Shown here piece after piece: positions 18,572 to 20,635 of a stretch of 64,000 bases of DNA. A program made the translations under genes and the position numbers. Each line of letters begins with the position of its first letter. Position 1 is the first letter of the stretch. The stretch comes from Cyanobacteria bacterium P01_F01_bin.150 (GTDB lineage: Bacteria; Cyanobacteriota; Cyanobacteriia; CAKZMO01), in the NCBI GenBank assembly GCA_039189765.1, contig JBCCYL010000017.1, positions 1 through 64,000 of the forward strand, written 5' to 3'. The notes under the pieces are model-generated. The model was not told the origin of the DNA. It worked only from the letters and a program-made list of their open reading frames with translations, and ran no database searches.

Positions 18572-19264
18572 TCATCTCCCTCCTCCTCCTTTGCGTCCCC
18601 CTACTCTCCCAAATCCACCACGCACGAAGCTACGATTTGACCCTGAACCACCGCTTCCACCCGTTTTCTTCCAACCGAATGCTTTGACTACTTCTTTTAA
18701 GACATCATCATGTCCAACTAAAAAATGTAACCCTTCGAACCTCTCGTTGATTTTCTCTAACTCTTTCGTATCATCATTCTCCGACACCCCCGATATATCC
18801 ACCTCTGACAGTGGCTTTTCACGGAGTTTGTTTCCATCGTGATCGTAGTATTCTACGATCCCATCCTTGACGATAGCCCCCGCTGCTGGTTTCGCGAAAT
18901 TCAGTTTCAGCCTGCCTGGCCTACGTGACGTAACTCCTATGGGAGATTTTTCGAAGTCTGCGAAGGGTTGTCTGAGTTTTTCGAGCATCTGCCGCATCCC
19001 ATCGGGCAGATCCTCGGGGAGTGGCTGGGGCGATCGCTGGAGTGTAGAGTGTTGTGGGGCTGAGTGTGATTTTTCTGCCCGTTTTCCATATGAACGAGCG
19101 ACATTGCTAATCATTGAACCTTTTCTATGGCTGGCACCATCTGATAGATTAGGTGGTGTCGTTTTCTTTCTCTGGCGAATAGGCTCCTCGCTCACTCTTG
19201 CTGAGGATAACCTACTGTCGTTTGCACTCTTCTTTGTCTGCTTTGGCGATCTCATGTTGCTCAT
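18572..19264 (-). CDS. Putative eCIS cargo with the shared leader and a Gly/Arg-rich RGGFG C-terminus
   Basis: GSMISNVARSYGKR and LQR leader motifs; C-terminus SFVRGGFGRVGGRKGGGGR. Confidence 0.7.
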   Translation of the reverse strand: MSNMRSPKQTKKSANDSRLSSARVSEEPIRQRKKTTPPNLSDGASHRKGSMISNVARSYGKRAEKSHSAPQHSTLQRSPQPLPEDLPDGMRQMLEKLRQPFADFEKSPIGVTSRRPGRLKLNFAKPAAGAIVKDGIVEYYDHDGNKLREKPLSEVDISGVSENDDTKELEKINERFEGLHFLVGHDDVLKEVVKAFGWKKTGGSGGSGSNRSFVRGGFGRVGGRKGGGGR

Positions 19265-19504
19265 CTCTCAGGCTAGCTTGACAGTTGAATCATTTTAAGT
19301 ACTAACAAATAAGTTGCTTCCTAGTCATAATAATTGGTGAGGGCAAAATTTTCTAATAAGATTTTCAGCGAAACTCATAAAAGCCATGTCATGAGAGCAT
19401 TTTGACAGTTTTTAGCATTGAAGTGCCTCTAGGACTTATACTCCAATCAGCTCAGTAGCCAGGTAAAAAGAAAGAACACAGATGAAAAACTGAAGAACTG
19501 TATT

Positions 19505-20635
19505 ATGGAGCGTATAGAAATTAGGCTTCGTGCTAATTGGTGGCAGAAATGCGAAGCGGCTGGATTCTACTTCTATAAGCATGAGTCTGGACTACCCTAT
19601 TGGAATGAAGCAGCTTGCTATCGCTTCAGCACCAAGGAAGTAGAAGAGTTAAAAACAGCAAGTGCAACTCTACATAAAATGTGCTTACAAGCTGTGGATT
19701 TCGTCATTAGGAAAAATCGTTTCCCACAACTGCGCATTCCCCCAGACTTTGCTAGTTTGTGTTGTAAATCTTGGTTAAGGGGGGATGCACCATTCTTAGG
19801 TCGCTTTGATCTGGTTTACGATGGCGCTCATCCGCCAAAGCTATTGGAGTACAATGCTGATGCTGCAACCACCTTGTTAGAGTCAGGTGCTGTTCAGTGG
19901 GCTTGGTTACAGGAAGTCTACCCTAACCAGAGTCAGTTCAACTCAATTCATGAAAAACTGTTAGCAACTTTCAGTCAAAGAGGTTACCTGCAAAATCAAA
20001 TTCTTTACTTTAGCTGTGTTCGGGATAGTGAAGAAGATTTAGGCACAGTAGAGTATTTAAGAAATGTAGCAATTCAGGCAGGCGTACAAACTCAGCACAT
20101 CTTTATCGAAGATATTGGCTGGAATGAAACTCAACGTATATTTTGTGACTTAAATGAGCAACAGATTGGCAACCTCTTTACACTTTATCCTTGGGATTGG
20201 CTCCTTCAGGACCCCTTTGGGCGATATTTATTAGAGGAACCGATGAGGCTTTTGGAGCCAGCTTGGAAGATGATTCTTAGTAGTAAGGCAATTCTTCCTA
20301 TTCTCTGGGAACTTTTCCCCAATCACCCCAATCTACTGCCGAGCTACTACGACCGTTGTCAATTAGATTACCCTTATGTCAGCAAGCCTGTTTTCTCCTT
20401 GAAAGGAGAAAACATTACTATTCATAACCAAAAAGGAGTTTACAAAACTCCTGGCAGTTATGCAGACGAACCCTTAATTTACCAAGCTTACTGCCCTCCC
20501 CCTCAATTTAATGGTTACTATCCAATTATTGGTTCTTGGATTATTGACCAGCAAGCAGCAGGAATCGGCATTAGAGAAGATTCTGGTCCTATTACTCAAG
20601 ATTCTAGTTTCTTTGTTCCTCATTACATTTGTTAG
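19505..20635 (+). CDS. Glutathionylspermidine synthase-family ATP-grasp ligase (YgiC/YjfC-like, no amidase domain)
   Basis: YWNE, GRFDL, KLLEYNAD, EPAWKMILSSKAILPILWE, IGSWI, GIRED, FVPH. Confidence 0.92.
   Translation: MERIEIRLRANWWQKCEAAGFYFYKHESGLPYWNEAACYRFSTKEVEELKTASATLHKMCLQAVDFVIRKNRFPQLRIPPDFASLCCKSWLRGDAPFLGRFDLVYDGAHPPKLLEYNADAATTLLESGAVQWAWLQEVYPNQSQFNSIHEKLLATFSQRGYLQNQILYFSCVRDSEEDLGTVEYLRNVAIQAGVQTQHIFIEDIGWNETQRIFCDLNEQQIGNLFTLYPWDWLLQDPFGRYLLEEPMRLLEPAWKMILSSKAILPILWELFPNHPNLLPSYYDRCQLDYPYVSKPVFSLKGENITIHNQKGVYKTPGSYADEPLIYQAYCPPPQFNGYYPIIGSWIIDQQAAGIGIREDSGPITQDSSFFVPHYIC

Follow-up and report, generated by a model that had tools for sequence, protein, structure and literature searches.

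In RefSeq, the Escherichia coli proteins YgiC and YjfC are both named "peptide--spermidine ligase," an activity known only for these E. coli enzymes and reportedly described by Pederick in 2023, a study known here through citations. A 2025 review, in its accessible part, treats this activity as demonstrated and the physiological substrate as unknown. In the glutathionylspermidine synthetase family, to which these enzymes are related, glutathione is activated at its glycine carboxylate and coupled there to spermidine, as partly accessible sources describe it. The accessible part of one paper describes DUF1190 proteins as metal-chelating lipoproteins that share operons with this ligase; a substrate role for them is not proposed there. 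No proposal that the tails of YgiB or YjfM, the proteins encoded beside YgiC and YjfC, are ligase substrates was found in the accessible literature, which does not cover Pederick 2023, Iyer 2009, Dhamdhere 2010, or Sui 2012. Here a ligase gene of this type is considered in a 64-kb stretch of Cyanobacteria bacterium P01_F01_bin.150 (contig JBCCYL010000017.1, positions 1 to 64,000; "the window"), where it lies head to head with the gene for a 230-amino-acid (230-aa) protein having an RGGFG motif near its C-terminus, amid genes for an extracellular contractile injection system (eCIS). Comparison with ligase loci from other genomes suggests that this kind of tail is the long-sought natural target of YgiC-type ligases.

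The eCIS cargos described in a 2026 AlgoCIS preprint have, according to its accessible part, a disordered N-terminal loading sequence that is alike within a system and not between systems. Loading needs this sequence and an AAA+ protein, a DUF4157 domain being optional, and unfolding of the cargo by the AAA+ protein is proposed. The ligase family, its DUF1190 neighborhood, and the eCIS loading leaders are already known. What appears to be new, within the searchable literature, is that what is conserved in the partner of the ligase is the tail motif and not the DUF1190 body, that ligase and tail give a passing co-fold, and that such a tail is carried by an eCIS cargo candidate beside a uniquely altered ligase.

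The gene pair in the window

The initial annotation of this locus had noted the tail of the 230-aa protein and its 240-bp divergent spacing from a glutathionylspermidine-synthase-like gene lacking the amidase domain, and the list of open reading frames (ORFs) and the Pfam matches bear this out. Its statement that YgiC-type enzymes have no established product is outdated, peptide-spermidine ligase activity having been reported in vitro according to partly accessible sources. The features of the pair, in window coordinates, are:

18572..19264, minus strand: ORF of 230 aa with C-terminus SFVRGGFGRVGGRKGGGGR (ORF list)
18608..18622, minus strand: RGGFG motif, residues 215-219; its Phe is the best-placed ligase contact in the co-fold
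18575..18607, minus strand: the 11 residues from the motif to the C-terminus, RVGGRKGGGGR (ORF translation)
19265..19504: divergent intergenic region, 240 bp (ORF coordinates)
19505..20635, plus strand: YgiC/YjfC-type ATP-grasp ligase, 376 aa (ORF list, Pfam)

The two genes run in opposite directions with their starts 240 bp apart. Promoter-like matches in 19265..19504 are weak and not above expectation (10, against 6.4 +/- 2.6 in shuffled sequences). The pattern [RK]GG[FWY]G occurs once in the six frames of the window, at the tail of the 230-aa protein. With no Asp or Glu among the 11 residues after the motif, the sole carboxylate there is the C-terminal one.

The ligase matches PF03738 (GSP_synth) over profile positions 1-371 of 371 (E 2.3e-136). 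This is the only family above the cut-off, and there is no amidase domain. Among solved structures it is closest to E. coli YgiC (7uk8, E 1.2e-97) and YjfC (7uk6, E 5.4e-91), with trypanothione and glutathionylspermidine synthetases coming next. Of these synthetases, EcGSPS has a chain of 619 aa and LmTSA one of 652 aa, and their alignment with the ligase starts at about residue 254 and 281, respectively. The closest relatives overall are cyanobacterial, from Symploca (68%) and from Lyngbya and Limnoraphis (58-60%). In LmTSA, residues R328, D330, E344, N346, K513, K548, and R613 serve in binding the ATP phosphates and Mg and in the transition state, according to the accessible part of Fyfe et al. 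(2008). The window ligase has R100, D102, E115, N117, K261, K294, and R357, all in invariant columns of a 53-row alignment and matched to the seven LmTSA residues by alignment or motif, so that the catalytic core is intact.

Linkage of tail and ligase across genomes

Species-representative genomes were scanned with the window ligase, which gave 66 loci from cyanobacteria, proteobacteria, Bacteroidota, Verrucomicrobiota, and other phyla. A tail was counted where x[RHTS][GS]G[FW]G followed by 7-23 residues was present in a same-strand ORF directly upstream of the ligase. This pattern was matched at 59 of the loci, with exact RGGFG at 54; one further partner, at L062, has KGGFG and was missed by the expression, so that a tail of the RGGFG type lies upstream of the ligase at 60 of 66 loci. 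The link between tail and ligase is thus stronger than the initial annotation knew, holding across many phyla while the body of the partner varies. At the 59 matched loci the tailed ORF ends between -1 and 102 nt upstream of the ligase (median 6), and the motif is followed by 7 to 23 residues (median 12). RGGFG occurs 59 times in the six frames of 961,367 bp of ligase loci, 54 times within 200 nt upstream of a ligase and five times elsewhere. Three evaluable loci without a partner (L009, L010, and L059) have upstream sequence and no motif; two more (L049, L057) have no upstream sequence, and L067 is a 24-residue partial match.

Two of the loci have features of their own. At L059, three tandem ligase paralogues occupy positions 9989-13353, with no RGGFG-tailed ORF upstream. 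At L018, there is an in-frame stop in the ligase frame (1021-2139) and an RGGFG-tailed partner 2 nt upstream of it; this ligase may be a pseudogene, or the stop may be a sequencing error in a metagenome-assembled genome.

Both E. coli pairs conform to the rule of an upstream tail. The ygiB gene is directly upstream of ygiC, and YgiB, named in the initial annotation as the neighbor of YgiC with RGGFG in its tail, is a DUF1190 protein (E 2.9e-55) in which this motif is followed by 23 residues. YjfM (L068, 7388-8026) has RGGYG, with Tyr for Phe, and 11 further residues ending in GG. Of 11 partners from other loci scanned for DUF1190, none was above the cut-off and three gave weak matches. Nearly all of the 60 partners (59) have a hydrophobic N-terminal stretch (hydropathy at least 1.6), followed in 51 by a Cys, and are in this sense lipoprotein-like. 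An alignment of 51 tails, made up of that of the window and 50 from the 60 partners, shows no conservation outside R-G-G-F-G. Since the partner bodies vary while the tail persists, the conserved unit that accompanies the ligase is the tail.

The composition of the tails is narrow. Together the 59 comprise 666 residues, among them S 255, G 212, T 42, A 42, R 34, and H 30; Asp or Glu is found in three tails, as is Lys. This leaves an ATP-grasp ligase almost nothing to act on besides the C-terminal carboxylate. At the final position, S is found in 38 tails, G in 19, and A in two. These comparative data point to the C-terminal tail of the neighboring protein as the candidate substrate of YgiC and YjfC.

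The tail is all that the 230-aa protein shares with the usual partners. The 230-aa protein is not DUF1190 (PF06693; no family at E up to 10), and in a BLASTP comparison with YgiB the motif alone aligns (E 0.35). With RGGFG and 11 residues, its tail is inside the range of 7-23 seen in the 59 partner tails; it contains one RGG and two GGR. It resembles the tails beside the closest relatives of the ligase, which have KRGGFGSGSRVGGRAGSRGG in the Lyngbya-group loci L004, L006, L007, and L014. When the L004 partner was compared with the window by tblastn, the best match was to the tail of the 230-aa protein, though weak (E 0.058). No remnant of a lipoprotein partner was found in the 64-kb window by six-frame motif scan or tblastn.

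Predicted complex of ligase and tail

A co-fold of the tail with the ligase had been proposed in the initial annotation as a check. The input was the ligase, with a 53-row alignment, and the last 45 residues of the 230-aa protein, with a 51-row tail alignment, together with ATP and Mg. The interface score (ipSAE) was 0.82 (0.80, 0.82, and 0.82 in the separate runs), and the best of three controls scored 0.01. The pass mark is one reached by 116 of 157 solved complexes and by 2 of 215 mismatched pairs, counts that apply only roughly because purpose-made alignments were used and ATP and Mg were included. At least 73% of contacts agree between runs, and the confidence (pLDDT) of the partner is at least 49. 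To our knowledge there is no solved complex of ligase and tail that the model could have memorized.

On the tail side, the predicted interface comprises residues 212-223 and 225-230; on the ligase side, it comprises A120, T122, V172, S175, D178, 201-209, Y228, P229, W232, L233, 235-239, L299, and K300. The most confident contacts are those of Phe 218 with I201, E202, I204, G205, Y228, W232, L233, and D236-G239. The presence in the interface of tail residues 225-230 and of A120, T122, V172, S175, D178, L299, and K300 would lay the tail along what is, in the homologues, the acyl-donor cleft. Overall, the model supports binding of the tail by the ligase.

The 230-aa protein and its shared leader

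Four parts can be distinguished in the 230-aa protein: an N-terminal leader, a short DUF4157-like start, an unassigned middle, and the RGGFG tail. The initial annotation had the tail joined to an eCIS leader; the leader is real, and is common to five ORFs of the cluster:

19004..19264, minus strand: leader of the 230-aa protein, residues 1-87, without predicted secondary structure (low-confidence model)
19100-19114, minus strand: leader motif MISNV; the 306-aa eCIS_core protein has its motif at an identical residue position
12246-12530, 12666-13586, 13676-14491, and 14607-15512, plus strand, and 18572-19264, minus strand: leader-bearing ORFs, identified by M[IS][SNR]NV
12666..13586, plus strand: eCIS_core/DUF4157 protein, 306 aa (Pfam, shared leader)

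M[IS][SNR]NV occurs exactly five times in the six frames of the 64 kb, each time near residue 50 of a cluster ORF, and the region in common extends over some 60-85 N-terminal residues. In BLASTP, residues 47-66 of the 230-aa protein align with 47-66 of the eCIS_core protein (E 0.009), and QPLPEDL (residues 80-86) aligns with the start of the eCIS_core domain (E 0.017); both matches are weak. Beyond these, Pfam gave no family for the 230-aa protein at E up to 10, nor for its residues 69-130. The ESM Atlas gave no usable feature match for it, all structural rows having TM of 0.36 or less and the model a pLDDT of 0.42. The protein has no hydrophobic segment (maximum hydropathy 0.75) and no Cys. 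Lacking a signal peptide or anchor, its tail would stay in the same compartment as the ligase.

Three of the other leader-bearing ORFs show variations on this plan. The ORF at 12246-12530 (plus strand, 94 aa) consists of the leader only and stops right after LPQDL, where the DUF4157-like segment of its neighbors begins; it could be a truncated cargo gene or encode a leader-only peptide. Those at 13676-14491 and 14607-15512 (plus strand) are paralogues, nearly identical over about 85 N-terminal residues and fully divergent after that, and neither has a Pfam match above the cut-off. From their sequences, C-terminal domains seem to have been exchanged as cassettes behind a constant leader.

The eCIS cluster and flanking genes

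The 230-aa gene is placed between the gene for an AAA+ ATPase and the eCIS structural genes. Further features of the cluster are:

16518..18467, plus strand: AAA+ ATPase with winged-helix domain, Afp15/Pvc15/Alg15-like (Pfam), the presumed cargo loader
21572..39141, plus strand: eCIS structural genes, for Pvc16_N cap, sheath, three tube-family proteins, VgrG-like spike, gp25, and spike tip
within 21572..39141, plus strand: further eCIS genes, for a 1355-aa baseplate protein, an S74-domain fiber-like protein, a LamG protein, and the tape measure
21572..22147, plus strand: Pvc16_N cap gene (Pfam)
37540..39141, plus strand: CIS_TMP tape measure (Pfam)

Judged from gene content and the partly accessible preprint, the cluster and the shared leader fit the architecture of eCIS cargos, and the 230-aa protein may be loaded in this way. 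The only minus-strand genes of the cluster are those for the 230-aa protein and for a 2-oxoglutarate (2OG) oxygenase.

The 66 ligase loci were also searched for eCIS genes. With 18 window proteins as queries, tblastn gave no match at E 1e-3, the best at E up to 1 being 0.026, and phmmer against 5,745 ORFs of these loci found no eCIS structural gene and a generic AAA+ gene in five loci only, a match that doubled as the positive control. In the Lyngbya-group loci L004, L005, L006, L014, and L020, the strand opposite the partner carries, some 0.6 kb upstream of it, a generic AAA+ gene of 506 aa (~7280-8906, minus); its phmmer match to the window ATPase has E ~1e-8, and the window pair likewise adjoins an AAA+ gene. 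In Capilliphycus (L006), the ligase-partner pair is found among unrelated genes.

Two other genes, located within the eCIS cluster or next to it, also encode candidate tailoring enzymes. The 2OG-Fe(II) oxygenase gene (15860-16564, minus strand) overlaps the start of the AAA+ ATPase gene, head to head, and an AsnB-type asparagine synthase gene (10283-12076, minus strand) is directly left of the leader ORFs. The 936 bp between the ligase and the Pvc16_N gene (20636-21571) hold no ORF of 110 aa or more, and a sigma-70-like match (10/12) is found at 21475-21502, directly before the Pvc16_N gene. The right flank (40492-58367) lies outside the eCIS. It contains a phosphonate C-P lyase and ABC transport cluster (PhnG, H, I, J, and others), a gene resembling a Uma2 endonuclease, and, on the minus strand at 56444-57454, a DDE_3 transposase.

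Proposed mechanism

The reading preferred here, held tentatively and with slightly less than even confidence, is that the 230-aa protein is an eCIS cargo candidate whose RGGFG tail is a recognition tag, and that the ligase amidates its C-terminus with an amine. The disordered leader would direct loading by the neighboring AAA+ ATPase, and the tail would be recognized by the adjacent YgiC-type ligase. The latter would dock the Phe of the motif in an aromatic pocket (I201, I204, G205, Y228, W232, L233, F238), with the last 11 residues threaded along the acyl-donor cleft. ATP would then activate the C-terminal carboxylate as an acyl phosphate, and this would be joined to an amine. The activity reported for E. 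coli YgiC/YjfC makes a polyamine the likeliest choice, and the product would be a C-terminally amidated cargo that might be injected in this form. Ligation at the C-terminus is favored because the distance from motif to end is short and constant and the tails have almost no other carboxylate or amine, and because of the family chemistry together with the peptide-spermidine ligase activity of YgiC and YjfC reported in partly accessible sources.

A broader proposal, possible though doubtful, is that RGG[FYW]G with a short Gly/Ser tail is a portable tag for polyamine capping by YgiC-type ligases. YgiB and YjfM would then be the missing physiological substrates, and in the window the tag would have moved onto an eCIS cargo and the cleft been retuned to it, the result being a polyamine-capped injected protein.

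Points against and alternative explanations

A number of observations weigh against the preferred reading. Six positions invariant in 52 of 52 relatives are changed in the window ligase (T120A, P121A, K226T, E231D, R299L, E300K), as are three at which the consensus residue is found in 51 of 52 (D143S, D187N, N260S). Among the 120 best hits from a collection of 5.8 billion proteins, the window's own protein included, this protein alone has AA for TP (TP in 119), LK for RE (RE in 103, 16 unmatched by the expression), and TD for K..E (K..E in 113, six unmatched). The relatives at 68% and 67% are canonical at the changed positions. A120 aligns with Ser-335 of EcGSPS and Ser-349 of LmTSA, a contact of the acyl-donor peptide in partly accessible descriptions. 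At the position of L299, each of the four solved homologues (YgiC, YjfC, LmTSA, and EcGSPS) has an Arg, so that the window copy may be impaired. The six unique changes could reflect either decay or a retuned substrate cleft. In favor of the preferred reading, the six cluster at the predicted interface: three of these positions are among the 28 interface residues of the predicted complex, compared with one of 29 invariant positions that are kept (Fisher p 0.011), and five of six are within one residue of the interface, compared with three of 29 (p 0.0009). Conservation of the predicted interface showed no enrichment.

Also against the preferred reading, none of the seven catalytic residues appears in the confident contacts of the co-fold. 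The window tail is basic and ends in Arg, whereas 59 of 59 partner tails end in S, G, or A, and the window partner is divergent from the ligase rather than upstream on the same strand as at the other loci. The 230-aa protein is a singleton: a word-indexed search and a full HMMER search of 1.84 billion representatives found no homologue but itself. Its AlphaFold2 single-sequence model has a mean pLDDT of 44, too low a confidence for a fold search. Structural genes of an eCIS are present at 0 of 66 ligase loci, so that the link to an eCIS, whose recurrence elsewhere the initial annotation had proposed to look for, is a single case. Finally, the usual partners look exported while the ligase has no signal sequence. 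Exported lipoprotein-like partners are awkward for a cytoplasmic ATP-dependent ligase, which weakens the inference of a substrate for the family as a whole. If the tail is the substrate, the canonical partners must be modified before export, and this is one possibility for those pairs.

One alternative is that the tail binds the ligase without being its substrate, as a tether that keeps the ligase close to its real substrate, whether small molecule or peptide, as a regulator or inhibitor, or as an adaptor bringing the leaderless ligase to the eCIS. It would account for a co-fold that gives docking and not chemistry, with catalytic residues outside the confident contacts, as well as for canonical partners that are exported lipoproteins, and the review, in its accessible part, has peptides as the in vitro substrates and the physiological one as unknown. 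It is nonetheless considered unlikely: a motif-to-end distance kept at 7-23 residues in 59 tails, with other reactive groups scarce, fits an end that threads into the active site better than a mere tether, and a folded 43-kDa enzyme would be an improbable passenger of the tube lumen, given the unfolding by the AAA+ protein proposed in the accessible part of the preprint. The low probability assigned to a eukaryotic role for the tail is lower still. Here it would mimic an RGG box, or glycine- and arginine-rich (GAR) region, acting in RNA binding, arginine methylation, or nucleolar targeting in the injected cell, and the ligase would be irrelevant. RGGFG is a known element of GAR regions of the nucleolin/fibrillarin type, according to partly accessible sources, and the window tail is richer in Arg and Lys than the 59 bacterial ones; but it has a single RGG, and 60 of 66 bacterial loci link the motif to the ligase, on partners that are not effectors.

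The two remaining alternatives concern the history and the setting of the pair. A lipoprotein-ligase pair may have been broken by rearrangement within the eCIS cluster, leaving a decaying ligase and a functionless tail. The six unique changes, one of them at an Arg kept in all solved homologues, would be expected of such a relic, as would the non-canonical orientation, the singleton status of the 230-aa protein, and the transposase in the window. Against this, both ORFs are full length, the ligase covers 371 of 371 profile positions with its seven catalytic residues kept, and its changes gather at the predicted tail interface and are not scattered across the invariant positions (p 0.011); in addition, the tail still co-folds at 0.82, and the window has no remnant of a lipoprotein partner. 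A relic is on this evidence improbable. There is a similarly small chance that ligase and tail are a working module merely located inside the cluster, the 230-aa protein being modified and neither loaded nor injected, and its leader serving otherwise. This would agree with the lack of a link to eCIS genes at the 66 other ligase loci, and with the fact that the 230-aa and 2OG oxygenase genes are the only ones of the cluster on the minus strand. It does not explain why the residue position of the leader motif is shared with the eCIS_core protein and three further cluster ORFs, the motif being found nowhere else in 64 kb, or why the leader matches the cargo architecture reported in the accessible part of the preprint.

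The window is a natural experiment in which the tail, without a lipoprotein body, has stayed with the ligase on a protein kept in the cytoplasm. If the modification is real, it would be a new kind at bacterial protein C-termini, and the 230-aa protein would be the first eCIS cargo with a tailoring enzyme of its own. The tag might then serve to modify engineered cargos.

Comparison with known systems

ATP-grasp enzymes that extend the C-terminus of a specific protein are known in RimK, which acts on ribosomal protein S6, and in tubulin tyrosine ligase; the RimK and S6 genes are neighbors, as are those of the pair described here. Both enzymes belong to another ATP-grasp family, however, and add amino acids and not a polyamine, with no tag of the RGGFG type.

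The glutathionylspermidine and trypanothione synthetases EcGSPS and LmTSA have the fold of the window ligase and, as far as accessible descriptions go, the seven residues for phosphate, Mg, and transition state. The window ligase differs from them in lacking the amidase domain, in having Ala at the acyl-donor contact Ser-335/Ser-349, and in the proposed use of a protein tail instead of glutathione.

Among eCIS cargos, AlgoCIS Cgo1 and Cgo2 and Pdp1 and Pnf of PVC resemble the 230-aa protein, in partly accessible sources, in a shared disordered N-terminal region, an AAA+ ATPase nearby, and an optional DUF4157. A ligase-recognition tail with a dedicated ATP-grasp ligase is not described for any cargo in the accessible papers.

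The closest systems are the E. coli pairs YgiB-YgiC and YjfM-YjfC. The window ligase is changed at six positions invariant in its relatives, and its partner is not DUF1190, has no signal sequence or lipobox, carries an eCIS leader, is encoded divergently, and ends in Arg. With these pairs the window shares a full-length homologue of the ligase and a neighboring protein with RGG[FY]G near its C-terminus.

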